NCBI GenBank assembly: GCA_024404875.1
Contig: JAKSPK010000003.1
Coordinates: 16,497 to 80,496, forward strand
Direction: 5' to 3'
DNA from: Oscillospiraceae bacterium
Lineage (GTDB): Bacteria; Bacillota; Clostridia; Oscillospirales; Ruminococcaceae
DNA length: 64,000 bases
A model generated the notes under the pieces. It made no database searches. It was not told the origin of the DNA and was given only the letters and a program-made list of their open reading frames with translations. This document shows positions 6,920 through 35,448 of this stretch, one piece after another. The stretch's first letter is position 1; each line of letters opens with the position of its first letter. A program made the position numbers and the translations under genes.

Positions 6920-8188
6920 TCACTTCCGATATTTGTCCATGATATCGCAGAAATCAAAGGTTGCAAAATAATCAGCCGGTGTCTCTGCTCGGCGAATCAG
7001 CTTCACATTGCCGTCCTCGCAGAACAGCAGCTCCGCAGAACGCAGCTTTCCGTTATAGTTATAGCCCATAGAAAAACCGTGTGCGCCGGTATCGTGAATA
7101 TAAAGCAGATCACCGATTTCCACTGGCGGCAGCATCCGGTCAATCGCGAATTTGTCGTTGTTTTCGCACAGGCCGCCGGTTACATCGCAGAGATAAGAAC
7201 AGGGCTCGTCCTCTTTACCCAGCACAGTGATATGGTGATAAGCGCCGTATATGGCAGGACGCATCAGGTTTGCAGCGCAGGCATCGCAGCCGACATATTC
7301 TTTGTAGATATGTTTTTTGTGCAGAACGCGTGTGATCAGTCCGCCGAAAGGCGCGAGCATGAATCTGCCCATTTCCGTAAAAATCGCAACATCGCTGAGT
7401 CCTGCCGGAACAAGGATTTCCTCAAATACCCTGCGCACGCCCTCACCGATCGCGAGAATGTCATTCGGTGTCTGATCGGGATGATATGCCACGCCGACAC
7501 CGCCGGAAAGATTGATAAAGCGGATATCTGCGCCGGTCTCCTTTTTCAGATCAGCGGCGAGCTGAAACATCTCCCGCGCAAGCGTCGGATAGTATTCATT
7601 CGTGACAGTGTTCGATGCGAGAAATGCGTGGATGCCAAAATGCTTTGCACCCTTCTGCATCAGCATTCTGAAGCCCTCAAACATCTGCTCGCGGGTAAAG
7701 CCGTATTTTGCATCCTGCGGCTTATCCATTACGAATGTCGAGATCTTGAAATCGCCGCCGGCGTTGAATCGGCAGCAGATTGTTTCCGGAATGCCGGTCA
7801 GTTTTTCGAGGTATTCGATATGCGTGATATCATCGAGATTGATGTATGCACCGAGCTGATACGCAAGCTGATAATCCGCAGCCGGTGTCACATTCGATGA
7901 AAACATGATATCGCTGCCGGAAAAACCGCAGGCATCAGCCATTTGCAGCTCGGTCAGCGAGGAGCAGTCCGCACCGCATCCTTCCTCCTGCAGAATCTTC
8001 AGGATAAACGGATTCGGCGTTGCTTTGACTGCAAAATATTCGCGGAAGCCCTTATTCCATGCAAATGCCTGCTTGACAAGTCGTGCATTCTCTCGGATAC
8101 CGCGCTCATCGTAGATATGAAACGGCGTCGGATACTGCGCAGTGATCTCCTCAGCCTGCTCTTTTGTAATAAAGGGTGTTTTCTTCAT
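6920..8188 (-). CDS. lysA: Diaminopimelate decarboxylase (PLP-dependent Orn/DAP/Arg decarboxylase family)
   Basis: YFAVKATPNP carries the PLP lysine, and the protein has the fold-type III decarboxylase layout. It follows dapL and a dapF domain on the same strand. The start was chosen at the second ATG (MKKTPF, SD GAGGA 9 nt upstream); the ORF track start is 8203. Confidence 0.75.
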   Translation of the reverse strand: MKKTPFITKEQAEEITAQYPTPFHIYDERGIRENARLVKQAFAWNKGFREYFAVKATPNPFILKILQEEGCGADCSSLTELQMADACGFSGSDIMFSSNVTPAADYQLAYQLGAYINLDDITHIEYLEKLTGIPETICCRFNAGGDFKISTFVMDKPQDAKYGFTREQMFEGFRMLMQKGAKHFGIHAFLASNTVTNEYYPTLAREMFQLAADLKKETGADIRFINLSGGVGVAYHPDQTPNDILAIGEGVRRVFEEILVPAGLSDVAIFTEMGRFMLAPFGGLITRVLHKKHIYKEYVGCDACAANLMRPAIYGAYHHITVLGKEDEPCSYLCDVTGGLCENNDKFAIDRMLPPVEIGDLLYIHDTGAHGFSMGYNYNGKLRSAELLFCEDGNVKLIRRAETPADYFATFDFCDIMDKYRK

Positions 8189-8344
8189 TATTCTATTCCT
8201 CATCCTAACATCTCATGTTTTGATTGCCTTTTTGTTACAAACCGGTATTTATCTGACTGCAGCAGAAAAGAGTCATATATGCGCGAGATTCGGCGTATGG
8301 GCGAGGCCATGCCATGAGCCGAACACCGGCGCGGACTCTGCGCA

Positions 8345-9520
8345 TTACAATGCAGCGAGATACGCCGCAGCCTTTGTAACGGTCTCTCTTGTGCCGAATG
8401 ACGAGAACCGCAGCCAGCCCTGACCGGCTTTACCGAAGCCGGCGCCCGGTGTTCCGGCAATGCCGAAGCTGTTCAGCAGATAATCGAAGTATTCCCACGA
8501 ATCAGCACCGTCGGGGCACTGCATCCAGACATACGGCGCATTCTCGCCGCCGACAGAATGAATACCCGCTTTTGTCAGCGCAGCCTTGATGATCCGCGCA
8601 TTCTCCATGTAATAATCAATATCCTCATGAACGGCACGCAGACCCTCGTCTGTGAAAACCTTTGCAGCGGCGCGCTGAATAATATATGAAGTACCGTTGT
8701 ATTTTGTCGCCATGCGGCGGAACCACATATCATGCAGCGATGCGCCGTCAAATTGAAGTGTGCGCGGAACAACCGTCCAGCCGCAGCGGACACCGGTGAA
8801 GCCTGCCGTTTTCGAGAGTGAATTGATCTCGATCGCGCAGGTCTCCGCGCCGTCGATTTCAAAAATGCTGTGCGGCAGTTCGGGATCACGAATATACGCT
8901 TCATATGCTGCATCGAACAAGATCAGCGCGCCATTATCCTTTGCATATGCGATCCATTTCGCAAGCTGATCTTTCGTATAGACTGCGCCGGTCGGATTGT
9001 TCGGCGAACAGAGATAAATGATATCCGCATGAACTGCTGCATCAGGCATCGGCAGGAATCCGTTTTCCTTTGAGCCGCACGCGAAGATTACGCGCCGCCC
9101 CGCCATGATGCTTGTATCGTAATAGACCGGATAAACCGGATCCGGCAGCAGTACCGTGTTGTCTGAATCAAACAGATCACAGAGATTGCCGAGGTCGCAT
9201 TTGGCACCATCGCTGATGAACACATCTGCTGCATCAACCTTTATGCCGCGCTTCTGATAATATCCGGCGATTGTTTCCCGCAGGAACGGCTCGCCCTGCT
9301 CAGCACCGTAGCCGTGAAATGTCTCCGCATGAGACATATCTTCGGCGGCGGCTTTCATTTCATCAGTGATGATCGCTGCGAGCGGGCGCGTGACATCACC
9401 GATACTCAGCTTTAACAGCTCACGCTCAGGATGCGCCGCCTGAAAAGCGGAGATACGCTTTGCAACCTCCGAAAATAAATAATTCTGCTCCAATTCGAGC
9501 GCATGATGATTGACTTTCAT
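8345..9520 (-). CDS. dapL: LL-diaminopimelate aminotransferase
   Basis: MKVNHHALELEQNYLFSEVAKRISAFQAAHPERELLKLSIGDVTRPL is a typical DapL N-terminus. The ATG at 9520 sits 1 nt after the upstream TAA and is preceded by GAGGTG; the track's upstream extension to 9562 is rejected. Confidence 0.9.
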   Translation of the reverse strand: MKVNHHALELEQNYLFSEVAKRISAFQAAHPERELLKLSIGDVTRPLAAIITDEMKAAAEDMSHAETFHGYGAEQGEPFLRETIAGYYQKRGIKVDAADVFISDGAKCDLGNLCDLFDSDNTVLLPDPVYPVYYDTSIMAGRRVIFACGSKENGFLPMPDAAVHADIIYLCSPNNPTGAVYTKDQLAKWIAYAKDNGALILFDAAYEAYIRDPELPHSIFEIDGAETCAIEINSLSKTAGFTGVRCGWTVVPRTLQFDGASLHDMWFRRMATKYNGTSYIIQRAAAKVFTDEGLRAVHEDIDYYMENARIIKAALTKAGIHSVGGENAPYVWMQCPDGADSWEYFDYLLNSFGIAGTPGAGFGKAGQGWLRFSSFGTRETVTKAAAYLAAL

Positions 9521-9521
9521 A

Positions 9522-12500
9522 TTACACCTCAATTTCTCCGCTGAATACCAGAACCGCATCACCGGTCATATAAACAGCATCCTCTGTATAACGGATCACG
9601 AGATCGCCGCCGTTCAGATGAACTGTGACTTCCGTATCCGGTTCGCAATATCCGTTTCTGACTGCTGCTGCCGCCGCTGCACAGGCACCCGTTCCACAGG
9701 CCATCGTCTCACCGGATCCGCGTTCCCAAACGCGCATCCGCAGCGTATGAGCGTCGATAACCTGCACAAATTCTGTATTGACCTGCTCCGGGAAAACAGG
9801 ATGATGCTCGAACTCCGGCCCGACCGTTTCAAGATCGACCGCCCCGGCATTGAAAACAACACAGTGCGGATTGCCCATTGACACGCAGGTGACAGTGTAT
9901 TCTTTGCCGGCAGCTGTCAGCGGCTGCGCGATTACTTCCGGCAGTTCACTCTTCACGGGAATCTGGGCAGCATCAAAAATCGCTCTGCCCATATTGACCG
10001 CAGCAGATGTGACAACACCGTTCTGCGTCGTGACCGTAACTGTGCGAAGACCGCTTTTCGTCTCGATCATGATATCCTTTTTTGTGCAGATGCCGAAATC
10101 GTAAAGATATTTCGCGACACAGCGGATCGCATTGCCGCACATATTTCCCTCGCTGCCGTCGAGATTGAACATCCGCATTCTCGCGTCTGCAATTTCCGAG
10201 GATTCGATCAGAACCAATCCGTCACCGCCGATTCCAAAATGTCGGTCGGATAGCTGAACGGCAAGCGACTCCGGCGCAGATACGCGCTTTTCCATGCAAT
10301 TCACATAAATATAATCATTGCCGCAGCCCTGCATTTTCACAAAGGGAATGCGTCGCTTGGCTGTTCGCAGATGATTCATATTCATCAGTTCCACATTGGA
10401 ATCCCGATACCCGGTGTGCAGGCAGTTTGCAACAGCTGCCGCAGTATCAGTACATGTCAGACAAGGAATGCCGAGCGCAACCGCTTTCTTCCGGATCTTC
10501 GCTCCGTCGCGGGCAGCCATACGCGCATTTGCATCTGTTGAGACAATATAGCGGATCGTTCCATTCTCCATGAGATCGAAGGTCTCCGTATCGCCGGTGT
10601 GCAGCTTGCGCAGCATATGGACGGATAAGCCCGCGGAACGCAGTGCATCTGCGGTTCCCTCCGTTGCAAACAATTTGAAATCAAGCCGTGCAAATTTCCG
10701 TGCAATTTCGATGATATCCGGCTTGTCCGCGTCACACACCGTGAGCAGAACGCCGTTCTGATTTTTGCCGCTGTCCTCAAGCCGGTAACCGGCCGCACGA
10801 AGTCCTTTGTAAAGTGCTTCGGTCAGCGTTTTACCGATGCCGATGACCTCACCGGTCGATTTCATTTCCGGTCCGAGCATGGATTCGCCGCCAATTTTCT
10901 GGAATGAAAATACCGGTACTTTGACGGCGGTAAAGGGCGGTGTTTTGTAATAGCCCGTGCCGTATTCCATGGCCGCAAGTTTCTCGCCGAGACAGACACG
11001 CATTGCACAGTCGCAGAGCGGCAGACCGGTCAGCTTGCTCATGAACGGGACTGTTCGCGATGCACGCGGATTCACTTCGATCACATAGAGTGACTGCCCT
11101 TTGACGATATATTGCAAATTGATGAGTCCGACTGCATGCAGGCCGAGACAGATCTTTTTTGTATCCGTGAGAATCTTTTTCCGCATATCATCATCGATAT
11201 GCACCGGCGGACAGATCGCAATCGAGTCGCCGGAATGTACGCCCGTACGCTCAATATGCTCCATGATGCCGGGGATCAGAATATCCTTGCCATCACAGAT
11301 CGCATCAACTTCGATCTCTGTGCCGCGGATATACTGATCGATCAGCACAGGATTATCAATGCCGTCTGCAAGAATATTCTGCATGAATGCTTTGACATTG
11401 TCCGCATCAAATGCGATGTTCATATTTTGTCCGCCCAGCACATAGGAAGGGCGTACCAGAACCGGCAGACCGAGCTTTTTGACGGCCTCATCTGCTTCCT
11501 CGAGCGTATTGACAGTACAGCCGCGAGGCCGTTCGATCTCAAGCGACTCCAGCAGTGCGTCAAAGCGTTCGCGGTCTTCCGCGAGGTCAATGCTGTCCGC
11601 CGTTGCGCCGAGCAGCCGATAGCCTGCTTCCTCAATCACCCGTGCAAGCCGGATCGCTGTCTGTCCGCCGAATGCCGTGACCACGCCAACAGGCTTTTCC
11701 AGTGCAAGGATAGAGAGCACATCCTCCGGCGTCAGCGGCTCAAAATACAGCCGGTCAGCCGTATCAAAATCCGTCGAAACAGTCTCCGGATTATTGTTAA
11801 TCAGCACAACCTCATAGCCTGCACTTTTTAGTATCTGCACACAGTGAACTGCCGAATAATCGAACTCGATGCCCTGTCCGATTCGGATCGGCCCGCTGCC
11901 CAAAACGACAACGGTCTGATGCGGTTTTCCGGCAAGAAACAGAGCTGCTTCATCGGCTTCCGGTGTTGCATCCGGATTGCAGACGCCATAAAAATACGGT
12001 GTTTCTGCTGCAAATTCGCCCGCGCAGGTATCAACCATACGATAGATCGGACGATACTTTTTCTGCGGCAGGCCGCATCCGGAAAACGCTGCAATCGTAT
12101 CATCCGGATAGCCGAATCGCTTGGCAGTCCGATAAAGATCATCGGTCAGCGGTGCATTTTCCAGGCTGTTCTCGCAGACAACGAGATCGTGGATCTTATG
12201 CAGAAACCAAGTGTCGATTTTCGATAATGCGTGAATTTCATCTGCTGTCATTCCGCGCCTGAACGCCTCTGCTGCTGCAAACAAGCGTACATCATCCGCA
12301 TGAACCAAATGCTCATGCAATTCGCTGTCAGAGACATTGCGCAGCGCCCGCACGAGCAGCGCACTATGCTTGACTTCAGCGCCGCGCAGTGCTTTCAGCA
12401 GCGCAGATTCAAAGCTGTCGGAGATGGCCATGACCTCTCCGGTCGCTTTCATCTGCGTGCCAAGCTGATGTGACGACCCTGAAAATTTCTCGAACGGAAA

Positions 12501-13577
12501 CTTCGGCATCTTCACAGCTACATAATCCAAAGCAGGCTCAAATGCAGCGGATGTCTTGCCGGTCACTTTATTCGCGATTTCGTACAGTCTGTAGCCAACC
12601 GCAATCTTTGCGGCAACCTTGGCGATCGGATAACCCGTTGCTTTGGATGCAAGTGCTGATGAGCGGGATACACGCGGATTCACCTCAATGACGGCATATT
12701 CAAACGAATCCGGATTGAGTGCGAACTGACAGTTGCATCCGCCCTCAATTTTCAGAACCTCCGCGATTTTTAACGCAGCAGTCCGCAGCATCTGGTACTC
12801 TTTGTCTGCAAGCGTGACTGCCGGCGCAATTACAATACTGTCGCCCGTATGAATGCCGACCGGATCGAAGTTTTCCATCGAACAGACTGTGATTTTATTA
12901 CCGTCCGCATCTCGCACGATCTCAAACTCGATCTCCTTCCAGCCTGCGATGCACCGCTCCACCAGGATCTGATGAATCGGTGAAAGCCGCAGACCGTTTT
13001 CCGCGATCCGCTCCAAATCATCCGGCGTTTCCGCGATGCCGCCGCCGGTGCCTCCGAGCGTAAATGCCGGGCGGATAATGACCGGATAACCGATCTCCTC
13101 TGCAATGCTGCGTGCGGTCTCCATGTCCTCGGCAATACCGGACGGAACGCATGGCTGTCCGATCGAATCCATTGTTTCCTTGAACAGCTTGCGGTCTTCA
13201 GCACGCGCGATTGTCTCCGGATCAGCGCCAAGCAGCCGGATTCCGTTTTCTGCGAGAAATCCGCTTTCCGCGAGCTCCGCGCAAAGGTTTAATCCTGTCT
13301 GTCCGCCAAGACCGGAAAGGATGCTGTCCGGCTTTTCCTTGAGACAAATACGCTTGATGACCTCCGTTTTCAAAGGTTCCATATAGATCTGATCAGCAAT
13401 CCGTGTATCAGTCATGATCGTGGCCGGATTGGAATTGACCAGCACAACCTCGATCCCTTCCTCTTTCAGAGCACGACAAGCCTGTGTACCGGAATAGTCA
13501 AATTCCGCAGCCTGCCCAATGACGATCGGCCCGGAGCCGATGACAAGAACCTTATGAATATCCTGATTCAGCGGCAT
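9522..13577 (-). CDS. carB: Carbamoyl-phosphate synthase large subunit fused in frame to diaminopimelate epimerase (CarB-DapF)
   Basis: One 1351-aa ORF. The first ~1070 aa are a complete CarB: two ATP-grasp halves and an MGS-like allosteric domain ending ...NVELMNMNHL. The last 276 aa (9525-10352) are a complete DapF with both catalytic Cys motifs (GNMCGNAIRC and ETMACGTGACAA). There is no stop and no SD at the junction. Confidence 0.85.
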   Translation of the reverse strand: MPLNQDIHKVLVIGSGPIVIGQAAEFDYSGTQACRALKEEGIEVVLVNSNPATIMTDTRIADQIYMEPLKTEVIKRICLKEKPDSILSGLGGQTGLNLCAELAESGFLAENGIRLLGADPETIARAEDRKLFKETMDSIGQPCVPSGIAEDMETARSIAEEIGYPVIIRPAFTLGGTGGGIAETPDDLERIAENGLRLSPIHQILVERCIAGWKEIEFEIVRDADGNKITVCSMENFDPVGIHTGDSIVIAPAVTLADKEYQMLRTAALKIAEVLKIEGGCNCQFALNPDSFEYAVIEVNPRVSRSSALASKATGYPIAKVAAKIAVGYRLYEIANKVTGKTSAAFEPALDYVAVKMPKFPFEKFSGSSHQLGTQMKATGEVMAISDSFESALLKALRGAEVKHSALLVRALRNVSDSELHEHLVHADDVRLFAAAEAFRRGMTADEIHALSKIDTWFLHKIHDLVVCENSLENAPLTDDLYRTAKRFGYPDDTIAAFSGCGLPQKKYRPIYRMVDTCAGEFAAETPYFYGVCNPDATPEADEAALFLAGKPHQTVVVLGSGPIRIGQGIEFDYSAVHCVQILKSAGYEVVLINNNPETVSTDFDTADRLYFEPLTPEDVLSILALEKPVGVVTAFGGQTAIRLARVIEEAGYRLLGATADSIDLAEDRERFDALLESLEIERPRGCTVNTLEEADEAVKKLGLPVLVRPSYVLGGQNMNIAFDADNVKAFMQNILADGIDNPVLIDQYIRGTEIEVDAICDGKDILIPGIMEHIERTGVHSGDSIAICPPVHIDDDMRKKILTDTKKICLGLHAVGLINLQYIVKGQSLYVIEVNPRASRTVPFMSKLTGLPLCDCAMRVCLGEKLAAMEYGTGYYKTPPFTAVKVPVFSFQKIGGESMLGPEMKSTGEVIGIGKTLTEALYKGLRAAGYRLEDSGKNQNGVLLTVCDADKPDIIEIARKFARLDFKLFATEGTADALRSAGLSVHMLRKLHTGDTETFDLMENGTIRYIVSTDANARMAARDGAKIRKKAVALGIPCLTCTDTAAAVANCLHTGYRDSNVELMNMNHLRTAKRRIPFVKMQGCGNDYIYVNCMEKRVSAPESLAVQLSDRHFGIGGDGLVLIESSEIADARMRMFNLDGSEGNMCGNAIRCVAKYLYDFGICTKKDIMIETKSGLRTVTVTTQNGVVTSAAVNMGRAIFDAAQIPVKSELPEVIAQPLTAAGKEYTVTCVSMGNPHCVVFNAGAVDLETVGPEFEHHPVFPEQVNTEFVQVIDAHTLRMRVWERGSGETMACGTGACAAAAAAVRNGYCEPDTEVTVHLNGGDLVIRYTEDAVYMTGDAVLVFSGEIEV

Positions 13578-14662
13578 TTCTGCACCTCCATCATCTGAAC
13601 GAATTCATCAAAAATGAAAGCCGTATCCTGCGGGCCGGCACAGGCCTCCGGATGAAACTGCACGGATATGGCAGGGAAATTGCGGTAGCGCAATCCCTCA
13701 CAGGTATTGTCATTGAGGTTGACATAGAGCAGGTCGGCTTTCTTGCTGCAGTGCGGATCATCTGTATTATACTGCACCTGATATCCGTGATTCTGTGTCG
13801 TGATGGCCATGCGCTTCGTTTCAAGATTCAGAACCGGCTGATTCGCGCCGCGGTGACCAAACTTCATCTTTGCGGTCGTGATTCCGTTCGCGAGCGCCAG
13901 CAGCTGATGTCCGAGACAGATTGCCATAATCGGAATACCGAGCGTAATGATTTTTTGCAGCTCAGCGATAATCTCCGGATTATCTGCCGGATCTCCTGCT
14001 CCGTTGGATAGCATGATGCCGTCCGGATGCAGATTCGCAATATCCTCACATTTTGTATATGCGGGCACCACTGTAACACGGCATCCGCGTTCTGAAAGTG
14101 ACCGCGCGATATTTGCCTTTGCGCCGATGTCCAGCAGCACGACATGATACGGTGCATTGACATCGCCAATCGTATATGCATTCTCACAAGTCGTGTGCTT
14201 TACCGCATCAGTGACACGATATGCTCGTATCTTCGACATATCCGCCTGTTCCGGCGAATCGCAGATCATACCGTTCATCGTTCCGTGATCGCGCAGCACT
14301 CTGGTAAGTGTACGGGTATCCACACTCGTAAGAATGGGAATATTTTGCGCTGTCAGCCAATCAGCAAGCCGGCCTTCGCTCCGAAAGTTCGATGGATTCA
14401 TGCAAATCTCCGAAGCAATATAAGCAGATAAATGCGGTTTAACTGATTCAAAATCTTCAGGTATCACGCCATAGTTTCCAATCAGCGGAAAGGTCTGCAC
14501 GACCGCCTGACCGTAATAGCTCGGATCAGTCAGCGTCTCCAGATATCCGTTCATACCGGTCGCAAAAACGATTTCCGCCGTCACATTGTTCCGTGCGCCA
14601 AGCCGTTTTCCGCGGAATATCATACCGTTTTCCAATACAAGACAGCCCTCAGTTGCATCCAT
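13568..14662 (-). CDS. carA: Carbamoyl-phosphate synthase small (glutamine amidotransferase) subunit
   Basis: 364 aa with the triad Cys motif ICLGHQLLALANG and HRGANQPV. It overlaps the carB start by 10 nt. Confidence 0.92.
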   Translation of the reverse strand: MDATEGCLVLENGMIFRGKRLGARNNVTAEIVFATGMNGYLETLTDPSYYGQAVVQTFPLIGNYGVIPEDFESVKPHLSAYIASEICMNPSNFRSEGRLADWLTAQNIPILTSVDTRTLTRVLRDHGTMNGMICDSPEQADMSKIRAYRVTDAVKHTTCENAYTIGDVNAPYHVVLLDIGAKANIARSLSERGCRVTVVPAYTKCEDIANLHPDGIMLSNGAGDPADNPEIIAELQKIITLGIPIMAICLGHQLLALANGITTAKMKFGHRGANQPVLNLETKRMAITTQNHGYQVQYNTDDPHCSKKADLLYVNLNDNTCEGLRYRNFPAISVQFHPEACAGPQDTAFIFDEFVQMMEVQKCR

Positions 14663-14697
14663 GTTTCATTTCCTCACTTCCGAAATTTACACGGCAA

Positions 14698-14722
14698 GCC
14701 GCACTGCGTTTTGCAATGCGGC
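14698..14722 (-). terminator. Hairpin between glnN and carA (weak terminator or processing site)
   Basis: The minus strand reads GCCGCATTGCaaaaGCAGTGCGGC, followed by TTGCCGTGTAAATTT. The U-tract is poor, so read-through into carA is likely. Confidence 0.35.
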
Positions 14723-14742
14723 ACCGCTATAATTATTATTAA

Positions 14743-16812
14743 TCAAACACTGTAAAGCAGATCTGCATAGGTGGGGAAGGGCTGATATTCCTTTGCTGTC
14801 AGCGGTTCAAGCTGATCGGCAGCGGCACGCAGCTCATTCATTGCAGGAATGATCGTGTCACGGCAGTAGTACGACGGATGCTCGTTATCAAAGAGTCCGA
14901 TCATCACGTTTTCAAGTGCTTCAGTCTTTGCCGCGATCTCGTCGGTCAGCGCGCTGACTCTCCGCAGCAGATCGGTCTCGGCCAAGCCCTGCACACCGAG
15001 CTCCTTTTTCTTCATCGCATAATCCGCAAGTGCCTCACCGTACCGGAAGCCCGCCGGAATGATCTGCGTACGAGCCATGTCGATCATCGTATTTGCTTCA
15101 ATCACAATGAGCTTCGTGTAGTTCTCAAGCAGAATATCCTTACGAGAAACGACTTCGCTGTGATTGTAAACGCCGAACCGCTTGAAGAGTGCAACATTCT
15201 TTTCAGTAGCAAATGCATGCATCGCGTCGGCTGTTGTGCGGAGATTGAGCAGACCGCGGCGCTCTGCCTCTGCAACCCATTCCTGCGAATAGTTGTTGCC
15301 GTTGAAAATGATGCGGCCATGTGTTTTCAGTGTATCCGAGAGGATTTTCTGTACTGCCTCTGCAACATCCTCTGCGCCCTCCAGACGATCAGCAAAATTG
15401 CAAAGAGCTTCTGCAAAGATCGTATTCAGCGCAATATTTGTATCAGCGATGGAGTTCTCCGAGCCGAGCATACGGAACTCAAACTTATTGCCGGTGAAAG
15501 CCATCGGTGAAGTACGGTTGCGGTCTGAGGTGTCCTTCTTGAAATCGGGGAGAACATGAACGCCGGTCATCAGGGTTTCGTGGTGCTTCTGCTCATCGCG
15601 GCCCTCAGCGGCTGCTTCGAGCTGGAGCTGGAGGTCATCTCCAAGATATACCGAAACGATCGCAGGCGGTGCTTCATTTGCGCCAAGACGGTGGTCGTTT
15701 CCAGCGGATGCAACCGACATTCTCAGCAGATCCTGATGCTCATCTACAGCAGCAACAACCGCTGCAACCATCAGCAGGAACAGTCTTTTGCGCTCCGGCG
15801 TTTTGCCCGGTGCAAAGAGGTTGATGCCGGTATCGGTCGAGAGCGACCAGTTATTGTGCTTGCCGCTGCCATTGACACCTGCGAACGGTTTTTCATGCAG
15901 CAGGCACATCAGTCCGTGGCGTTCCGCGACCTTCTTCATGATCTCCATTGTGAGCTGGTTGTGGTCGCAGGCGAGGTTCATAGTCGTATAAACAGGTGCA
16001 AGCTCATGCTGTGCAGGAGCGACCTCATTATGCTCTGTCTTCGCGTAGATGCCGAGCTTCCAAAGTTCCTCGTTCAGATCCTTCATGAAAGCCTGTACAC
16101 GCGGCCGGATCACGCCGAAATAATGATCCTCCATCTCCTGACCTTTCGGTGCTTTTGCTCCGAACAGTGTTCTGCCGGTAAAGAGGATATCCTTGCGCTG
16201 CTTCGCGATTTCGCGGTCGATAAGGAAGTATTCCTGCTCCGGACCGACCGTTCCGCTGACGCGCTTCACATCGTCAAAGCCCAGCAGATGCAGCACCTTG
16301 ACTGCCTGCTCGCTGACGGCTTCCATAGAACGCAGCAGCGGCGTTTTCTTATCAAGTGCCTCACCGCTGTAGGAATAAAATGCAGTCGGGATGCACAGGC
16401 TGTTTTCCTTGATGAATGCATAGGATGTCGGGTCCCAGGCCGTATAGCCGCGTGCTTCAAAAGTTGCGCGGAGACCGCCCGACGGGAACGAAGATGCATC
16501 CGGTTCGCCCTTGATCAGCTCCTTGCCGGAAAATTCAAGAATCGCACCGCCATTTCCATCAGGGGAAAGGAAGCTGTCATGCTTCTCTGCGGTGATACCG
16601 GTCATCGGCTGGAACCAGTGCGTGTAATGCGTTGCGCCGTTTTCCACAGCCCATTCACGCATCGCGCTGGCGACCACATCCGCAACGGTCTGGTCAATGT
16701 CCTTGCCGTCCGCAATGGTCTCGTGCAGGGATTTGTAGACCGCTTTCGGCAGGCGCTCCTGCATTACGGCATCATTGAACACAAGTCTTCCGAATACATC
16801 AGTCGGTTTCAT
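14743..16812 (-). CDS. glnN: Glutamine synthetase type III
   Basis: 689 aa. The length and the N-terminus [29 protein letters not shown]...[12 protein letters not shown] are typical of GSIII. Confidence 0.9.
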
Positions 16813-17618: not shown

Positions 17619-17626
17619 GACCGGTG

Positions 17627-27030: not shown

Positions 27031-27044
27031 ATTTCATTGTCGAT

Positions 27045-27073
27045 ATTATAACACATTGTGAAAGTTCTGTCAA
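27045..27073 (-). promoter_or_regulatory. Sigma-A-type promoter TTGACA-17-TATAAT (TGn extended -10) for the glutamate synthase operon
   Basis: The minus strand reads TTGACAgaactttcacaatgtgtTATAAT. It shares the AATGTGTTAT -10 context with the glnN promoter. Confidence 0.65.
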
Positions 27074-27205: not shown

Positions 27206-28132
27206 CTAAAACAGCGTAAGCTGATTGTCTATCCAGCTTTCCTGCTTTGCAGAATGAACGGTCTCGCCCGCCTGCACAGAGCCGATAAGCAGTGGCGAAC
27301 AAGGATCATGGAGCTGCATATTGTGACGAACATTCTCCCTGTTATGATTGGCGTAGCAGTAGCGGCAGAGATGCCCGCAGGTATCATATGTTCCGATATC
27401 CGAACCGAGGACGCAGGTACATTCTGTCCGCTGTGATTTTGTTTTCGGAATGCACAGCTTACTGCCGACCGCAGATTCAAAGGTCTCCTTTGTCATGCAG
27501 CCGGAACAATCGACGCCGAAGCGTGCAAGTGCCGTTCCTTCAGCGCAGGCCTTGACGGTGATTCCGTACTGTCTTCCAATCTCCGCAAAGGCGCTTCCAA
27601 GGGCGATCCGTTCCTGCTCTGTGACCGTTCTTGCCTGCGGATAATTGCGCAGAACTTTCTCATACAGGTCTATGAAGCTGATGACGCATACACCGGTATA
27701 GCCGGAGAGTGTCCGGCACATCGCTGAGAAATCTGCAATGTGCCGTTCGATCGTGTATGTACTGTCGATCAGGATCGGATCATACCGCCAACCGATACAG
27801 TCAAGTCCGACCGCCTTTGAAAGCGTGATGAAATGCTGCATGACAGTTTCCTTCGGCGGCACATTCGGTTCAATCTCCGCTCCGTAGGGTGTGATCGTGA
27901 CAAACCAATACTGATGAAAGCGCTTCAGCACATCCATATATTGCAGCATCGGCGCGGGATTCTTGGTGCAGAATACGATGCAGTCCACGACCGCCGGGTC
28001 CAACTCATAGCGAGTGATCCAATCCGGGCGGAAGGGATTGCGAACCATCACAAAGCCTGCCCGTATTCTGTTCATGAACCATTCTGCATAGAAAGCCGGA
28101 ATATCCGTCCGCATACCTGTGTTGAGTATCAT
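27206..28132 (-). CDS. DUF1848-like protein with C-terminal CX3CX2C cysteine cluster (function unknown)
   Basis: The N-terminus MILNTGMRTDIPAFYAEWFMNRIRAGFVMVRNPF matches my memory of the DUF1848 family. The C-terminal CGHLCRYC is a radical-SAM-type spacing. The ATG at 28132 is preferred over the GTG at 28141. Confidence 0.6.
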   Translation of the reverse strand: MILNTGMRTDIPAFYAEWFMNRIRAGFVMVRNPFRPDWITRYELDPAVVDCIVFCTKNPAPMLQYMDVLKRFHQYWFVTITPYGAEIEPNVPPKETVMQHFITLSKAVGLDCIGWRYDPILIDSTYTIERHIADFSAMCRTLSGYTGVCVISFIDLYEKVLRNYPQARTVTEQERIALGSAFAEIGRQYGITVKACAEGTALARFGVDCSGCMTKETFESAVGSKLCIPKTKSQRTECTCVLGSDIGTYDTCGHLCRYCYANHNRENVRHNMQLHDPCSPLLIGSVQAGETVHSAKQESWIDNQLTLF

Positions 28133-28171
28133 TGCTCTCACCGTCCTTGCTTTATTTGCAGATACGATAAC

Positions 28172-28211
28172 GAAAAAAGGCGTACAGATATCCTCCCGGC
28201 ATCTGTACGCC
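28172..28211 (-). terminator. Intrinsic terminator ending the trp transcription unit
   Basis: The minus strand reads GGCGTACAGATgccgggaggatATCTGTACGCC plus TTTTTT. Confidence 0.8.
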
Positions 28212-28228
28212 TGAATCTATTGAATGCT

Positions 28229-28483
28229 TCAGTGATGATCTTCCGTTTCTTTCTTCCGGCGCTTGTTGCTGAGGTGATTCTGGATTCCCTTGACGATCGT
28301 GATCAGAACCGCATAGACCAGTGACTCAAACGCAATTTCGCCGATCTGGAAGGTATCGGTGCGACCGGTCGCCTTCGACCAGAGCAGACGGAATACAAAA
28401 AGAATCACCAACAGAAAACTGAAATGCACCGCAAAATACAGCAGCCAGAAGCGCGGCGCGGATCGGTTTACAGGAATACTCAT
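28229..28483 (-). CDS. Small membrane protein (2 predicted TM, basic/His C-terminal tail), function unknown
   Basis: 84 aa, SD AAAGGAGGA. It is the last cistron before the terminator, and no terminator separates it from trpA. Confidence 0.5.
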   Translation of the reverse strand: MSIPVNRSAPRFWLLYFAVHFSFLLVILFVFRLLWSKATGRTDTFQIGEIAFESLVYAVLITIVKGIQNHLSNKRRKKETEDHH

Positions 28484-28606: not shown

Positions 28607-29377
28607 TTACCGAATGGCATTTTTCATGCTGCGCACATATTCTCCGACGGCCGGCGCAGCATCTCTGCCCTGCTCTCCGATCCGGCGGACGATCGCCGAG
28701 CCGACGATCACGCCATCTGCGGTCGCGGCCATTGCGGCTGCCTGCTCCGGTGTCGAAATGCCGAAGCCAATCGCACATGGGATATCCGTATTCGCACGGA
28801 TCTGCGCGGTCATCGACGCAAGATCGGTGTTAATCTCACTGCGCACACCCGTTACGCCGAGACTCGATACCACATAAAGAAAGCCTTCTGCATCCTTCGC
28901 AATCTCGGCAATGCGGTTTTCGGAGGTCGGCGCGATCAGCGAGATAAAGTCGATCCCGCAGGCACGGCAGGCCGGCGCAAACTCCTCTTTCTCCTCATGC
29001 GGCACATCCGGCAGAATGATGCCGTCGATGCCGGTCTCGGCGCATTTCTGCACAAAGCGCTCAATGCCGTAGGAAAATACCACATTCGCATAGGTCATGA
29101 ATACGAGCGGCACGCGGACATCCTTCCGCAGCTCCTGCACAAAATCGAAAACGCGGTCGGTCGTGACGCCGCCTGAAAGTGCGCGGATATTTGCGCCCTG
29201 GATGACCGGTCCTTCTGCGGTCGGATCGGAAAACGGAATGCCCAGCTCAATAAGATCTGCACCCGCTGCCTCCATTTCGCGGACGATCTTCCCCGTTGTT
29301 TCGAGGTCGGGGTCGCCGCATGTGATAAACGGAATGAATGCCTTTCCATTGCGGAAAGCGTCCCTGATCTTACTCAT
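28607..29377 (-). CDS. trpA: Tryptophan synthase alpha chain
   Basis: [23 protein letters not shown]..., [17 protein letters not shown]. Its ATG overlaps the trpB stop (ATGAGTAA). Confidence 0.92.
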
Positions 29378-30560
29378 GGATATCCTCCCCTCTGTATCGT
29401 GCGATCGCCGCACAGTCCTTGTCGCCGCGGCCTGAGATCGTGATAACGATGATCTGATCCTTGCGCATCTGCGGTGCGATCTTCATCGCATGAGCGACAG
29501 CGTGCGCGGATTCGATCGCCGGAATGATGCCCTCTGTCCGCGAAAGATATTCAAACGCATTGACTGCTTCATCATCGGTGACAGCGACATATTCCGCTCT
29601 GCCGGTATCATGCAGATGTGCGTGCTCCGGGCCGATGCCGGGATAATCGAGTCCCGCCGAGATCGAATAGACCGGCGCGATCTGGCCGTATTCATCCTGA
29701 CAGAAATAAGATTTCATGCCGTGGAAAATGCCGAGCTTTCCGGTATTGATCGTTGCGGCGGTCTCAAAGGTGTCAATGCCTCTGCCAGCAGCCTCACAGC
29801 CGATCAGCCGTACATCCGCATCCGGAATAAAGTGGTAGAAGGTGCCGATCGCATTGGAGCCGCCACCGACGCACGCGATGACCGCATCGGGCAGTCTGCC
29901 TTCTTTTTCGAGAATCTGCGAACGGATTTCCTTCGAGATAACCGCCTGAAAATCGCGGACGATCGTCGGGAACGGATGCGGACCCATGACCGAACCGAGA
30001 CAGTAATGCGTATCCGCAATGCGGCTTGTCCATTCGCGCATTGCCTCGGAAACGGCATCCTTCAGTGTTGCCGTACCAGATGTAACCGGAATCACCTCCG
30101 CGCCAAGCAGCCGCATTCTGTAGACATTGAGTGCCTGTCTTTTGGTATCTTCCTCACCCATGAAAACGACGCATTCCATGCCCATGAGTGCAGCAGCGGT
30201 CGCCGTCGCAACGCCGTGCTGACCGGCTCCGGTCTCTGCGATCAGGCGCGTTTTGCCCATTTTCTTCGCCAGCAATGCCTGACCAAGCACATTGTTGATC
30301 TTGTGCGCACCAGTGTGATTGAGATCCTCGCGCTTGAGATAAATCTTTGCACCGCCGAGATCTGCGGTCATTTTGGCCGCGTAATAGAGCAGCGACGGAC
30401 GGTTTGCATATTCATTGAACAGCGTCTCCAGCTCCGCATTGAAGGCAGGATCGTTTTTATAGAAATCATACGCCTGTTCCAGCTCAATCACGGCATTCAT
30501 CAGTGTTTCGGGGATATACTGCCCGCCGTGAATGCCGAAGCGTCCTTTCGGATTTGTCAT
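29370..30560 (-). CDS. trpB: Tryptophan synthase beta chain
   Basis: [20 protein letters not shown]..., HTGAHKINN (PLP lysine). The start at 30560 follows SD AGGAGG; the track extension to 30632 is rejected. Confidence 0.93.
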
Positions 30561-30905
30561 ATCGTACCTCCTGTAAACTGTTTTCCGTGCAGCCGGACAA
30601 TGATGCACAGCAGCACTGTGAGAATCATGCACGCTGCAGTACCAAAGTCAAAAGTAGTATTATTCAGCAGCATATGGATGAAGACCGCAATAGGAATCAG
30701 CCCTTTGCAGTTTTCGTAATGCACCGCCCGCGCGCTCAGCACGGAAAGTGCCATGTGAAATACGAGATTCGCGGCGCTGCCGTGCCTGATCCCGTAACAG
30801 AGCGCCGATCAGCCAAACCGTCAACCGTTCGCCGGTGAATGTCTTCGCGCCCTGCACAAAGACACTACGCAGGAAAAAGTCCACGAACTGAAGCGTTGAA
30901 AATAT
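30557..30905 (-). pseudogene. Relic of a CPBP (CAAX-type) intramembrane protease gene, N-terminally truncated and frameshifted
   Basis: Two adjacent frames read ...FVDFFLRSVFVQGAKTFTGERLTVWLIGALL then YGIRHGSAANLVFHMALSVL...GLIPIAVFIHMLLNN (FxxxH and HxxxN motifs). No start codon is present. The stop overlaps the trpB ATG (ATATGA). Confidence 0.4.
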
Positions 30906-30907
30906 TG

Positions 30908-31519
30908 TCAGCCTGTCCTTTCACATTGTCTGACTGCTGTTGTAAATGCACGCATCTTCGAGATATCTTTCTGCCCGTCCGTTTCAATGCCGGAGCTTGT
31001 GTCCACGCCGTAGGGATGATACTGCGCGATCACTGCTGCTGCATTTTCCGGTGTCAGTCCGCCTGCGAGAAAGTATGGCCTTGTGCATCCCGCGAGCAGC
31101 GTATGATCGAAGGTGCTTCCCGTTCCGGTTCCGGCATCCAGAAGCACCATATCTGCATCGGAGCACATCGCCGTCTGCACATCCGCCTCTGTCCGGATCG
31201 TATACGCTTTCATGATCGGCAGCTTACAGACCATGCGCAGCTCCCGGATGAAGGCAGCATCCTCGTCACCGTGAAGCTGCACAAGCTGAATGATTCCGCG
31301 CTCGGCAAAATCCGCAATCTCCGTGATCTGCGCATTTACAAATACACCGACCGCCGGAATGCGATCTGAGAGCGCTTTGCGAATCGCCATTGCGGTCTCC
31401 CGCGTAACGGAGCGCCGGAATCCAGCCGAGAGGATGATGCCCGCGAAATCGGGACAAACCGTATTGCAGGCAGCGGCATCCTCCGGCCGCATCATACCGC
31501 AGAGCTTGATTTTGGTCAT
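30908..31519 (-). CDS. trpF: Phosphoribosylanthranilate isomerase
   Basis: 203 aa, MTKIKLCGM..., LHGDED. It has an ATGA overlap with trpC. Confidence 0.9.
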   Translation of the reverse strand: MTKIKLCGMMRPEDAAACNTVCPDFAGIILSAGFRRSVTRETAMAIRKALSDRIPAVGVFVNAQITEIADFAERGIIQLVQLHGDEDAAFIRELRMVCKLPIMKAYTIRTEADVQTAMCSDADMVLLDAGTGTGSTFDHTLLAGCTRPYFLAGGLTPENAAAVIAQYHPYGVDTSSGIETDGQKDISKMRAFTTAVRQCERTG

Positions 31520-32313
31520 CGTTTTTCACCTTTCAGATACCGCAGCATCGTGGCTTTGTCATCGGCGCGCATCAGCGTTTCACCGATCAGCACGGCATCT
31601 GCGCCGGCATCCCGCGCTGACTGAATATCCGCCGGAGTACGCATTCCGCTCTCGACAACAAACAACGCATCTGCAGGCGCATATTTCCGCAGACTTCCCG
31701 CACGCTGAGGATCAACGGAAAAATCGCGCAGATTGCGGTTATTGACGCCGATGATCCGCGCACCCGCTTCTGCAGCGGCTTCGATCTCTCTCTCGTCATG
31801 GGCTTCGACCAATGCCGAAAGTCCGACCGACTCCGCAATACTATGATACTCCTTCAGCGCCGATTTGTCAAGGATCGCGCAAATCAGCAGCACAGCCGAT
31901 GCGCCGAGCAGCTTCGCTTCATAGATCATATAGGGATCGACCGTAAAATCCTTCCGCAGACAGGGAATTGAAACGGCTGCGGCGATCTCCGCAAGATACC
32001 GGTCGCTGCCGAGAAAGCGTTCCGGCTCTGTCAGGACAGAAATGCAGTTCGCTCCGGCACTTTCATATTCCTGCGCGATTTTAAGATACGGGAAATCCGG
32101 TGCGATCAGCCCTTTCGAAGGCGATGCTTTTTTGCATTCGCAGATAAATGCGATATCATCGGTATGCAGCGCATTCTCAAATCGGAAGCTGCCCTTCGGC
32201 ATGGCCTCCGCATCGCGCCGGACGGATTCCGCAGAGCGAAGACGCTTGGCGCGTTCAGTGCGGGACGCTGCGGATTCCGCCAGTACTTGTAAAATATCCT
32301 GCATCGCGCTCAC
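31516..32313 (-). CDS. trpC: Indole-3-glycerol phosphate synthase
   Basis: 265 aa, [12 protein letters not shown]..., NNRNLRDF. The GTG at 32313 overlaps the trpGD stop; an ATG at 32304 is an alternative start. Confidence 0.9.
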
Positions 32314-33989
32314 CGGTTCGATGCAGCGGCAAAGGCTTCGAGCTTTTCGAGTGCCGCGCCGCTGTCGATCAGCTCCGCCGCAAGCTTGATGCCCTCTGCC
32401 ATGGACGGCGCTTTATCTGCAATGTAAAGTGCAGCACCCGCATTCATGAGAACGGCTGTGCGTTTGCCGCCCTGCTCCTTGCCGGACAGCACCGCGCGGG
32501 TAATCGCCGCATTCTGCTCCGGAGAACCGCCGAGCAGCTCTGCGCGGTCGCAGCGCACCAGACCGAAATCTTCCGGCGAGACGGTGTAGGTCTTGGACTG
32601 CTCCACATCAAATTCGCAGACAAGCGTATCCGCACAGGCGGAGATTTCATCGAGCCGGTCGAGACCGTAGACGACCATGCCGCGCTTGACACCGAGACGC
32701 ATCAGCACCTCCGCGATCGGATTGACCAGCGATGCATCATAAACACCAATAAGCGTCCGTTTTGCATTTGCAGGATTCGTCAGCGGGCCAAGGATATTGA
32801 AGACGGTGCGCACGCCAAGCTCTTTGCGGATCGCGCCGACAAAGCGCATCGAGGTGTGATAAAGCTGCGCAAAAAGGAAACACATTCCAACCTCATTAAG
32901 CATTGCGGCTGCTTTCTCCGGCGGCTGCTGGATATTTACACCGAGCGCTTCGAGACAGTCCGCTGTTCCGCACTTCGAGGATGCAGCGCGGTTGCCGTGC
33001 TTTGCGAGGGCTGCGCCTCCCGCTGCAGCGACAAGTGCAGATGTTGTGGAGATGTTGAAGCTGTTGGCATTATCACCGCCTGTACCGACGATCTCCAGCA
33101 CATCAAGATCATGCTCGACATGAAGCGCGTGCTCACGCATTGCCGTCGCACAGCCGGTAATCTCGTCAATCGTCTCGGCCTTTGTGCTTTTGGTTGAGAG
33201 CGCCGCGAGAAATGCAGCATTCTGCGTCGGTGTCGTTTCGCCATTCATGATCTCGTTCATAACGGCATAGGCTTCTGCATAGGTCAGGTCATTTTTACCC
33301 ACGATCTTTTTGATTGCTTCAGCGATCATTTTCGGTTCCTCCTCAGAGCGGGGCGTGCCCGCATCTTTTTTTTCAATGTTATTCGGTTCTTTTGTCACAG
33401 GCCGGGCTGTCAGATCCTCAGAATCAGAATGGATAAAATTGCGGAGCATCTGCATCCCGTCCGGCGTCAGGATGGATTCCGGATGAAATTGCAAACCGTA
33501 AACCGGATATTCCCGATGCTGAACGGCCATGATCTCGCCGTCCTCCGTTCGGGCGGTAATGCGCAGGCAATCCGGCATCGTATCAGGATCGGCAGCGAGG
33601 GAATGATACCGCGCAGCCGGAACAGTCTCCGTCAGGCCGCGGAACAGCGCACAGTCCGGCATAAGAATGATCTCAGACTGCTTGCCGTGCATAAGCTGCT
33701 TTGCATGAATGATCTTCGCGCCATATGCGGCACAGATCGCCTGATGACCAAGACAGACACCAAGGATCGGAATGCGGCCGCCGAGCTTTTGTACGACTTC
33801 AATGATGATGCCGGCATCCTCCGGTCTTCCGGGACCGGGCGAAAGGATAATATGAGAGGGGGCAAGTGCCTCGACCTCTGCAACAGTCATTGCGTCGTTC
33901 CGGATCACGCGGATATCCTCGGTCAGCGTACCGAGATACTGATAGAGATTATAGGAAAAGCTGTCGTAATTATCAATCAGCAGGATCAT
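32310..33989 (-). CDS. trpGD: Bifunctional anthranilate synthase component II (glutamine amidotransferase) / anthranilate phosphoribosyltransferase
   Basis: 559 aa. The N-terminal half is [18 protein letters not shown]...GVCLGHQ (TrpG). The C-terminal half has GTGGD and [11 protein letters not shown] (TrpD). Confidence 0.9.
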
Positions 33990-35448
33990 TGAGCGCCTCC
34001 TGTTCCTTCAGCGCACGGACGACCGCCGCTGCTTTGTTCATGCATTCCTGATATTCCTTTTCCGGCACGGAATCCGCGACGATTCCCGCACCGCTGCAAA
34101 CATAGACCGTATCGCCCTTGCGGTAAGCGAGTCGGATCGCGATACAGGCATCCAGATCGCCCTGAAAAGAGAGATAGCCGACCGCGCCGCCATAGATGCC
34201 GCGCTTTGCGCCCTCAAGCTGACCGATCAGCTGGCAGGCACGGATCTTCGGCGCACCGGAAAGCGTTCCGGCAGGCAGCACTGCAGCAACCGCATCCAGT
34301 GCATCGAATTCCGGCCGGATCTCACCGCGCACCGTCGAGCCAATGTGCATGACATGAGAATACCGCTCAATCGAATGAAGCTTTTCGACCGAGACTGAAC
34401 CGAAGCGGCTGATCTTTCCGAGATCGTTTCTGCCGAGATCGACGAGCATATTATGTTCGGCAAGCTCCTTTTCATCCGCGAGCAGATCGGCTTCGAGCGC
34501 CTTGTCCTCGGCAGCGGTCTTGCCGCGCGGTCTGGTTCCGGCGAGCGGAAAAGTATGCAGAACACCGTCCTCCAGCCGGACGAGTGTTTCCGGTGAAGCA
34601 CCTGCGGTTTCGATATCCGTGCCGGAGAAATAGAACATATACGGCGATGGATTCAGTGTCCGCAGCATCCGGTAGGTGTTAAGCAGCGAACCCTCAAACG
34701 GTGCCGAAAAACGGTTTGCGAGGACAATCTGAAAAATGTCGCCCTCATGAATATAATGCTTTGCCTTCTCGACCATTTCGCAGTATTCCGCCGGCTGAAA
34801 GAGCGGCGTCAACTCACCTGTCATGCGGCTGACCGGTTCGCTGGCGGGCTTGCCGCTGCGGATTAGATCTGCCATCTGCTGAAGCGCAAGCGATGCGCGG
34901 TGGTATTCCGTTTCCGGCTGGCTGAGCTGCATATTGGCGATCAGGATGATCTTCTGACGGAAGTGATCAAAGGCGATCACCTTGTCGAAGAGCATGAGAT
35001 CGAGATCCTGAAAATGCGCATCGTCAGCAGCAGCCGTACGGATGCTTGGCTCCTGATAGCCGAGATAATCAAATGCGAAATAGCCGACAAATCCGCCGGA
35101 AAAGGGCGGAAGCTGCGGGAGCTTCGGACTGCGGTATTTGCGCAGCAGTGAACGCAGAACCGCTGCGGGATCATCAGTCTCCGTTTCGGCATCACCGATC
35201 CGGAGTTTTCCGTCCCGGCAGGAAACATCGAGCTTCGGATCATAGCCGAGGAAGGTATAGCGCCCGTGCGATTCGGGGCCAGAGACCGATTCGAGCAGAT
35301 AGCAGTGTGCGGAAACGCGGCGGAGCTTCCGCAGAACGCCGAGCGGGGTGATGTCATCGCAGAGCAGTTCACAGCTCAGCGGCAACAGGTCATAGCTTCC
35401 CTCTGCGGCAAAGCGCCGCACCTCGTCAAGAGTGAATGATACTTGCAT
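33973..35448 (-). CDS. trpE: Anthranilate synthase component I
   Basis: 491 aa with the chorismate-binding signature ...[26 protein letters not shown]. Confidence 0.92.

Follow-up and report, generated by a model that had tools for sequence, protein, structure and literature searches.

We analysed a stretch of 64,000 nucleotides, here called the window, from an Oscillospiraceae bacterium (assembly GCA_024404875.1, contig JAKSPK010000003.1, positions 16,497 to 80,496 of the forward strand). The subject of the analysis is a long run of genes at window positions 6920 to 35448, which an earlier note had described as a single-strand glutamine hub of 25 intact genes joined by very short or overlapping junctions. 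Of 23 open reading frames (ORFs) submitted from this interval, 21 have Pfam support, and the NCBIfam names agree; with one further ORF of 84 amino acids (aa) they make 22, two of which are fusions. Every supported ORF lies on the minus strand, as claimed, but the count is 22 and not 25. Thirteen of the 20 junctions overlap or measure at most 16 nt, whereas the other seven are 51–465 nt long and contain promoters, attenuators or terminators. The same-strand run is real, but it is made of two unrelated parts: a trp operon with a DUF1848 gene (35.8–28.2 kb), and a nitrogen array (27.07–6.75 kb).

The nitrogen array, read in its own direction, begins with a glutamate synthase (GOGAT) split into five genes, GATase_2, Glu_synthase, Fer4, Pyr_redox_2 and GXGXG (21948..26951; Pfam, NCBIfam). 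The GATase_2, Glu_synthase and GXGXG domains thus occupy separate neighbouring ORFs, and the Fer4 and Pyr_redox_2 genes sit among them. The CTP synthase gene pyrG (20339..21946; Pfam) begins 1 nt past GXGXG and is the sole copy in the assembly; purF (18917..20335; TIGR01134, 505 bits) begins 3 nt past pyrG. There follow glnA, coding for a type I glutamine synthetase of 412 aa (17627..18865; Pfam, NCBIfam), and, overlapping it by 4 nt, the gene of a 200-aa ANTAR regulator with a pseudo-receiver domain (17028..17630). The remaining genes are glnN, for a type III glutamine synthetase (14743..16812; Pfam), carA (13568..14662; Pfam), a carB::dapF fusion of 1351 aa (9522..13577; Pfam, NCBIfam), the LL-diaminopimelate aminotransferase gene dapL (8345..9562; TIGR03542, 520 bits), which the earlier note had rightly placed in the run, and a lysA-type diaminopimelate decarboxylase gene (6920..8203) that scores 282.8 bits, just below the TIGR01048 cut-off of 297.9.

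Strong promoter-like sites on the minus strand occur in only four gaps of the run, at 35794, 27073, 18920 and 16980. The 28.5 kb is not a single operon with one promoter and no internal terminators: it contains these four sites, a strong terminator at 28173–28212 and two leader terminators. Within the nitrogen array, the sequence points to three transcription units. The GOGAT unit would start from a promoter matching the consensus at 12 of 12 positions, with an extended −10 (27045..27073), and comprises a leader (26973–27036) and then the five GOGAT genes, pyrG and purF; its genes are spaced by −4 to 16 nt. Its GATase_2 gene starts at 26951, behind an AAGGAGG site, and not at the ATG at 26987, which lies inside the attenuator terminator. 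The glnA-ANTAR unit has a consensus promoter (18891..18920) that touches the purF stop codon and is followed by no attenuator; this promoter is kept in all eight aligned members of the genus. The glnN unit has a promoter with an 11/12 match and an extended −10 (16952..16980), a leader (16887–16944), and then glnN, carA, carB::dapF and dapL, with lysA after a further 141 nt; carA overlaps carB, and carB::dapF overlaps dapL.

On inspection, no U-tract terminator was seen at the purF-glnA or glnN-carA junctions. Since purF and glnA are not separated by such a terminator, read-through from the GOGAT unit could feed the unit of the regulator itself, a possible positive loop. The 80-nt spacer between glnN and carA carries a hairpin without U tract (14693..14725), kept in 8/8 aligned genus members with a variable loop, and it could be a processing, stabilising or protein-binding site. 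In the dapL-lysA spacer, a hairpin is followed by a weak T-rich tail that may act as a weak terminator, and a terminator-like hairpin with a T run (6749..6780, minus strand) closes the array. The GOGAT promoter is identical at 26 of 29 bases, spacer included, to the promoter of an amtB-glnK fusion on a separate contig (G000:C35:27369-27404; TTTCACAATGTG). Such near-identity could mark an additional control at the DNA level.

The two leaders of the array are similarly built. In attenuator 1, the GOGAT leader (26973..27036, minus strand), P1, a hairpin at 27015–27032 whose hexaloop is AAAGGC, shares bases with the 5′ arm of a 12-bp terminator (27011–27022 paired with 26980–26991), which is followed by T7. 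In attenuator 2, the glnN leader (16887..16944, minus strand), P1 lies at 16922–16941 with hexaloop AACGGC, and the bases of its 5′ arm and loop also make up the 5′ arm of the 12-bp terminator (16929–16940 paired with 16892–16903), again followed by a T run. P1 has 6–7 bp in both, and its hexaloop has A at position 1 and G at position 4; P1 and the terminator exclude each other, because one arm of P1 doubles as a terminator arm. A third leader, with hexaloop AAAGGG, precedes the amtB-glnK fusion and was found by the promoter match and inspection. The three leaders carry the A1/G4 hexaloop defined for ANTAR target RNAs (Ramesh et al., 2012).

Orthologous leaders, sometimes in tandem, stand 5′ of GOGAT in 12 of 13 relatives and 5′ of glnN in 13 of 13. 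Over 20 aligned leaders the hexaloop is near-invariant; pairing reaches 97.5% in hairpin P1 and 93.7% in the terminator, and compensatory changes affect 4 of 6 and 9 of 12 pairs, respectively, where the percentages are inflated because the scan that selected the leaders required pairing, and the compensatory changes are the informative part. The pairing of hairpin and terminator is far above that of slid and shuffled controls. Counting reverse-strand echoes, a covariance model built from the leaders gave 96 matches at E up to 0.1 in 90 loci of the order, nearly all of them in the gap between divergent glnN and GOGAT and a few before amtB-glnK or asnB. In two loci of the named collection described below (L191, 47.5 bits; L199, 28.6 bits), pyrG has a promoter and an attenuator of its own directly 5′.

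Strict pattern scans of the genome returned one or two leaders; a relaxed scan together with the promoter match added the amtB-glnK leader. The relaxed scan gave seven matches. One match on contig C82 was rejected as a leader, being an ordinary terminator after a gene, and another, on C49, lies just past the 3′ end of the purL ORF and was read as a gene-end terminator; those on C1 and a second one on C82 were judged unlikely from their weak stems. Inspection upstream of the second glnN of the genome, on contig C46, revealed no ANTAR-type leader.

The ANTAR domain (PF03861) of the regulator scores 48.5 bits, against a cut-off of 27.3, over residues 142–194. Its receiver half scores 24.5 bits with Response_reg, below the cut-off of 30.2. 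Across 31 aligned orthologues the phospho-acceptor position, placed by eye against the general receiver pattern, is almost invariably Asn (N63), and Ser/Ala stand in for the acidic pair, which is not what is expected of a receiver. We take the protein to be an AmiR-like pseudo-receiver; in AmiR, control comes from a partner protein rather than from phosphorylation. In 34 loci the glnA and ANTAR genes are neighbours, separated by −4 to 69 nt. By analogy with AmiC holding AmiR and NasS holding NasT, we entertain as a minor possibility that GlnA itself is the sensor, and may hold or release the ANTAR protein according to its glutamine or feedback state. One GlnA-ANTAR pair would then set the transcription of ammonium uptake, glutamine synthetase and GOGAT, PyrG, PurF, CarAB, GuaA, AsnB and GlmS, that is, a glutamine supply-and-demand circuit widespread in gut Clostridia. 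In a named metagenome-assembled genome (MAG) of the Clostridiaceae (L166), two ANTAR genes lie 6.9 kb apart, the first after GOGAT and the second after glnA, with carA, dapF, pyrG and dapL between them.

The carB::dapF gene holds two full parts in one frame: CarB (TIGR01369, 1372 bits, residues 4–1053) and DapF (TIGR00652, 287 bits, residues 1078–1349), both over their cut-offs. The fusion recurs in other genomes. With the junction and the DapF part as query, 6973 proteins of 743–2365 aa were matched at E up to 0.001 among 7993 scored candidates, some of the lower ones perhaps plain CarB; PF01678 (DAP epimerase) is present in all 120 best matches, which are mostly 1310–1357 aa long. The matches include proteins from Oscillospiraceae, Ruminococcus and Herbinix hemicellulosilytica. 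We found no description of the fusion in the open-access literature.

We compared the array with other genomes of the genus. By DNA search, 12 of 24 are collinear with it over 6.9–27.1 kb at 78–87% identity, and the other 12 lack this GOGAT; among 44 other species of the genus, 28 have it. Protein maps were made of 17 genus genomes. The complete order GOGAT-pyrG-purF-glnA-ANTAR-glnN-carA-carB::dapF-dapL is present in 12, and three more are consistent with it where contig ends interrupt; one (G160) keeps all these genes on a single strand but in a different order, and one (G150) has a simpler core only. The 20-kb array marks a clade within the genus.

Outside the genus, 120 high-quality genomes of the order were searched for this GOGAT; 46 have it, and they represent 18 of 26 families. 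The surroundings were mapped up to about 40 kb around GOGAT, shorter where contigs ended. The common core of these 46 maps is glnN divergent from GATase_2, Glu_synthase, (Fer4, Pyr_redox_2), GXGXG, glnA and ANTAR. To either arm of this core, nitrogen-spending genes are attached in varying order: pyrG, purF, carAB, guaA, asnB, glmS, nadE and dapF/dapL. One genome has glnN, amtB-glnK, asnB, glmS, guaA, pyrG, purF, dapF and dapL (G130), another glnN, amtB-glnK, asnB, guaA, pyrG and purF (G027); two share ANTAR, purF, carA, carB::dapF, nadE and dapL (G062, G083), and a further one has GOGAT, purF, carA, carB::dapF and guaA (G074). Linkage was defined as a same-strand chain with gaps under 500 nt, and the genes counted were pyrG, purF, guaA, asnB, glmS and carA. 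At least one counted amidotransferase gene is linked to the core in 27 of the 46 genomes (14 of 18 families), two or more in 13, three or more in seven, four or more in two, and five in one. By our own estimate, if six genes were placed at random in a 2-Mb genome, one of them would fall within 20 kb in about one genome in ten. The control genes purL, gatA, hisH and cobQ were present in none of the 46 maps.

The named collection holds 588 relatives of the ANTAR protein; the best 80 loci were used, 65 of which have at least 2.5 kb downstream. In 49 of these 65, the ANTAR gene is followed directly by a chain with at least one counted gene. In the named loci, the gene that comes first after ANTAR is pyrG in 23, carA in 11, purF in 5, dapF in 5 and guaA in 3. 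Among the control genes, hisH was found in three of the best 80 loci, gatA in one, and purL and cobQ in none. Harryflintia acetispora has the series glnA, ANTAR, purF, carA, carB::dapF, pyrG, nadE, glmS; further chained loci belong to Anaerotruncus colihominis, Pygmaiobacter massiliensis, a Romboutsia, Defluviitalea phaphyphila and MAGs of Spirochaetes. The core is also present in an Elusimicrobium genome, accompanied by nadE and amtB and by none of the counted amidotransferase genes. The same functional set therefore stays together in many lineages in differing order. Because membership recurs though reshuffled, selection rather than inherited synteny alone is indicated.

The hub had been said to gather nearly every glutamine amidotransferase and both glutamine synthetases. 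TrpG, the GOGAT amidotransferase, PyrG, PurF and CarA are indeed all present in the run, on the minus strand, by Pfam and NCBIfam; however, the assembly (87% complete) holds at least nine amidotransferases elsewhere, namely GuaA, HisH, CobQ, two AsnB, two GlmS, PurL and GatA, besides a PurF-like ORF that scores below the family cut-off. A third glutamine synthetase is encoded on another contig, a second type III enzyme (G000:C46:14461-16719) with 72% DNA identity to glnN, and only two of the three lie in the run. The amtB-glnK fusion, which in relatives is a member of the gene set, is on contig C35 here. The gdhA gene (1–1416, minus strand) does lie on the same strand 5.5 kb past lysA, as had been noted, but a plus-strand gene at 2389–3891 breaks the run between them. 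A second gdhA (G000:C43:2077-3405) has 57% protein identity; in three other genomes (G006, G147, G155), a gdhA of this second type is divergent from GOGAT.

The other part of the run is the trp operon, with trpE, a trpG-D fusion, trpC, trpF, trpB and trpA (28607..35448, minus strand; Pfam, NCBIfam). Upstream of trpE lie a promoter-like site matching 11 of 12 consensus positions (35766..35794) and a probable T-box leader (35509..35754; Rfam RF00230, E 6e-17), whose 84.1 bits are under the gathering score of 93 although the match is full-length and includes the T-box/terminator helix; a UGG in the region of the specifier loop was read by eye only. After trpA come the hydrophobic 84-aa ORF (28229..28483, minus strand, with a GGAGG ribosome-binding site and no family match) and a strong intrinsic terminator with a 12-bp stem and T6 (28173..28212), which closes the unit. 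The spacer between trpF and trpB (30633..30907, minus strand) is 275 nt long, compared with some 25 nt in relatives, and forms a stable fold (−102 kcal/mol over 296 nt); it has no Rfam match and is unique within the genome. Apart from the 36-nt promoter match, neither this spacer nor the trpA-DUF1848 and leader spacers recur in the genome. The DUF1848 gene (27206..28141, minus strand; Pfam) is located elsewhere in the two relatives where it was found. In five members of the genus (G003:C7, G007:C38, G013:C29, G016:C156, G023:C96), a T-box match adjoins a trpB-trpA match, with no other trp match listed beside it; such species may retain only tryptophan synthase, perhaps for indole salvage.

Inclusion of the trp operon in the hub is not supported, because it has its own probable T-box and its own terminator and because, among the relatives examined, it stands beside GOGAT only here and in one sister species (G164, 96–97% protein identity), where trpA is directly 5′ of GATase_2 without DUF1848 between. 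TrpG is in the run merely through this juxtaposition. Homology ends at about 27.11–27.17 kb in all 12 collinear genus genomes, and their trp operons are on other contigs; the adjacency is therefore a recent event common to the two species. The array is collinear in 12 of the 17 mapped genus genomes and recurs as a reshuffled set beyond them, whereas the trp part adjoins it in two species only. We found no sign of a mis-join. In run X1, perhaps the source sample, a separate contig of 4922 nt spans 25000–29393 with four differences, and a 21.5-kb contig spans 34229–37500, at an even depth of about 14–15; these independent contigs span the joins, and the sister species shares the trpA-GATase_2 adjacency. 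Runs X2–X4 gave only short, mostly divergent pieces, and the search for runs yielded none of RNA.

Elsewhere in the assembly and the window, the following was seen. By a crude longest-ORF gene call across the assembly, the longest of 660 same-strand runs has 25 ORFs and covers window positions 4098–35448, and the runner-up has 19. The GC skew is negative across 1–53 kb of the window, which suggests that the minus strand is the leading strand. With Rfam at gathering thresholds, the sole match in the whole window is a fluoride riboswitch (45408–45494, minus strand; 35.1 bits against a gathering score of 34), located behind a 12/12 promoter and directly 5′ of a gene of the Na_H_Exchanger family (44164–45366). 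With E up to 1 over 6–46 kb, Rfam added only the T-box and gave no family for the attenuators.

Taking these data together, we consider it probable that the run is a trp operon under its own control beside a 20-kb nitrogen super-operon of three units, which belong to an ANTAR-attenuated regulon. In two units, a strong promoter is followed, about 10 nt on, by a small hairpin; it has an A-x-x-G hexaloop and forms in competition with an intrinsic terminator. The glnA-ANTAR unit, with a strong promoter and no terminator, would supply the pseudo-receiver ANTAR protein, and this protein would bind the hexaloop hairpin in the nascent RNA, block the terminator and let RNA polymerase proceed. Read-through of attenuator 1 would give expression of GOGAT-pyrG-purF and that of attenuator 2 expression of glnN-carA-carB::dapF-dapL-lysA, and amtB-glnK, on another contig, would be behind the same switch. 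The capacity for glutamine and glutamate synthesis would then move, presumably with nitrogen status, together with the main stand-alone consuming enzymes (for CTP, purines, carbamoyl phosphate and diaminopimelate). The ammonium-assimilation regulon would have repeatedly captured stand-alone entry enzymes that consume glutamine or glutamate, and in this clade the three units would have been consolidated head to tail on one strand.

Two propositions of the earlier note are thereby retained in part. An RNA regulator had been thought to gate the array: an ANTAR gene is present and lies between two attenuator-led units, but gating of the whole 28.5 kb by one regulator is not supported. Clustering had been attributed to selection for co-regulation; the shared attenuator type, the recurring reshuffled set and the attenuator of pyrG itself in two loci agree with this, and the trp genes and gating of the whole 28.5 kb have to be left out.

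Several points weigh against the regulon as proposed. The leader alignment drew on sequences that the scan had selected for pairing. The second hairpin is a variable terminator apex with loops of 4–7 nt and no conserved letters, A1/G4 being present only in hairpin 1; it is also hairpin 1, rather than hairpin 2, that the terminator overlaps. Both features depart from the published dual-hexaloop definition. The covariance model missed the glnN and amtB leaders of this genome, finding only the GOGAT leader and its reverse-strand echo; the two others were recognised by pattern and by eye. By this query, this GOGAT is missing from 16 of the other 44 species in the genus. Because relatedness makes the genomes non-independent, the counts overstate separate events, and the chains were drawn from a fixed query set, in which genes outside the set break chains and are left unannotated. 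Transcription units, read-through and the inducing signal we infer, all three, from the DNA. The main difficulty is that pyrG, in single copy, would stand behind a conditional terminator; it follows that the switch is leaky, that internal promoters went unseen, or that the unit is on under most conditions.

Part of what is seen could arise without a common control. Were the arrangement passive, the result of leading-strand bias and inherited synteny, the genes would be regulated independently and the glutamine theme would have been read into them post hoc. The negative GC skew fits a leading minus strand, seven junctions measure 51–465 nt, and the trp operon, DUF1848 and lysA-side genes such as coaX are in the run without a link to glutamine. 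Yet in many families the same set re-forms, differing in order and in the arm of the core that it joins; the control genes purL, gatA, hisH and cobQ are nearly absent from the same stretches; pyrG has its own attenuator copy in two loci; and we regard a passive origin as quite improbable. An error of assembly that joined the trp/DUF1848 block to the GOGAT array would account for homology to the 12 genus genomes stopping where it does and for their trp operons being on other contigs; with both stretches covered by contigs of run X1 at even depth and trpA directly 5′ of GATase_2 in the sister species too, it is hardly credible.

Other explanations accept the cluster and place its cause elsewhere. 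Co-regulation might dispense with ANTAR, the leaders being read by another factor or the promoters by a DNA-binding regulator, so that the ANTAR protein serves glnA only. This would suit the GOGAT and amtB promoters, alike at 26 of 29 bases, the second hairpin without canonical loop, and a receiver in which the usual acceptor Asp is Asn and which is not phosphorylatable there. But the ANTAR gene accompanies the leaders throughout the order and outside it, the genes that could be named in the locus include no second conserved regulator, and A1 and G4 of the hexaloop fit the published recognition rule (PMC3369931); we hold this alternative to be unlikely. Clustering for co-localised translation or a glutamine-channelling complex, instead of transcriptional control, would be in keeping with the two fusions of the run (carB::dapF and trpG-D) and with the many junctions that look translationally coupled. 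Membership and order vary freely between genomes, however, which is unexpected for a fixed complex, and we find this explanation very improbable.

Nitrogen control in Clostridia is poorly known compared with NtrBC in enteric bacteria or TnrA/GlnR in Bacillus. If the proposed ANTAR regulon is real, many Clostridia of gut and rumen have an attenuation system that ties the production of glutamine and glutamate to the opening steps of the pathways to pyrimidines, purines, arginine, amino sugars, asparagine and diaminopimelate. It would provide concrete regulon predictions for metabolic models of gut anaerobes, and a simple rule: stand-alone amidotransferase genes enter the hub, and those of pathway operons (purL, hisH, gatA, cobQ, trpG) stay out. 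The glnA-ANTAR pair would be a candidate for kinase-free sensing of nitrogen status.

Some features of the array resemble known systems. Its pattern, a functional set reshuffled yet linked, is that of the uber-operon, a concept said to stem from Lathe, Snel and Bork in 2000, in which a related gene set stays together while its order is reshuffled across lineages. The pairing of glutamine synthetase and antiterminator genes is shared with Clostridium acetobutylicum, where glnA reportedly has a nitR antiterminator and an antisense RNA (work attributed to Fierro-Monti, 1992); to our knowledge, no amidotransferase linkage is known there. In the open-access literature, we found no published link of ANTAR or nitrogen control to pyrG, purF or carAB, and no account of this locus repeatedly capturing pyrG, purF, carAB, guaA and glmS; the predicted ANTAR targets in the supplement of PMC3369931 may, however, include such genes. 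As far as the accessible texts go, the core cluster and the idea of an ANTAR antiterminator are already in print, as are ANTAR RNAs at nitrogen genes and a nitrogen cluster in Prevotella. In Clostridium thermocellum, split GOGAT genes and an ANTAR response regulator (Clo1313_2030-2036) are co-expressed, with glutamine synthetase genes nearby, and the ANTAR protein has been proposed as an ammonia-assimilation antiterminator (PMC4676874). The core gene set is the same as here; as described in the accessible part of that paper, the cluster has no linked pyrG, purF, carAB, guaA, asnB or dapF/dapL and no leader RNA, whereas the core is here split by pyrG-purF and extended by carAB::dapF-dapL-lysA.

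In the ANTAR antitermination systems EutV/EutW of Enterococcus faecalis, AmiR/AmiC, NasR and NasT/NasS, as far as accessible in PMC3369931 and PMC3795266, an A1/G4 hexaloop hairpin likewise opposes a terminator and targets are enriched at nitrogen genes, as here; ANTAR target RNAs have been predicted 5′ of nitrogen-metabolism genes, those of glutamate and glutamine synthesis included (PMC3369931). The present leaders differ in having one conserved-loop hairpin, with the terminator overlapping hairpin 1 and not hairpin 2; the locus has no kinase or known sensor partner gene, and genes for nucleotides and diaminopimelate are among those of the target operons. In Prevotella ruminicola, amtB, glnK, asnB, glnN, gltBD, dapF and pyrG respond to ammonium supply (PMC5552732). 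Strain 23 is a member of the Bacteroidota with a scattered pyrG and a GOGAT of the gltBD type, and no ANTAR attenuators are described in the accessible part of the paper; its cluster of amtB, glnK, asnB, glnN-2, gltBD and dapF nevertheless shows a grouping similar to that of the array, with a joint response to ammonium (PMC5552732).

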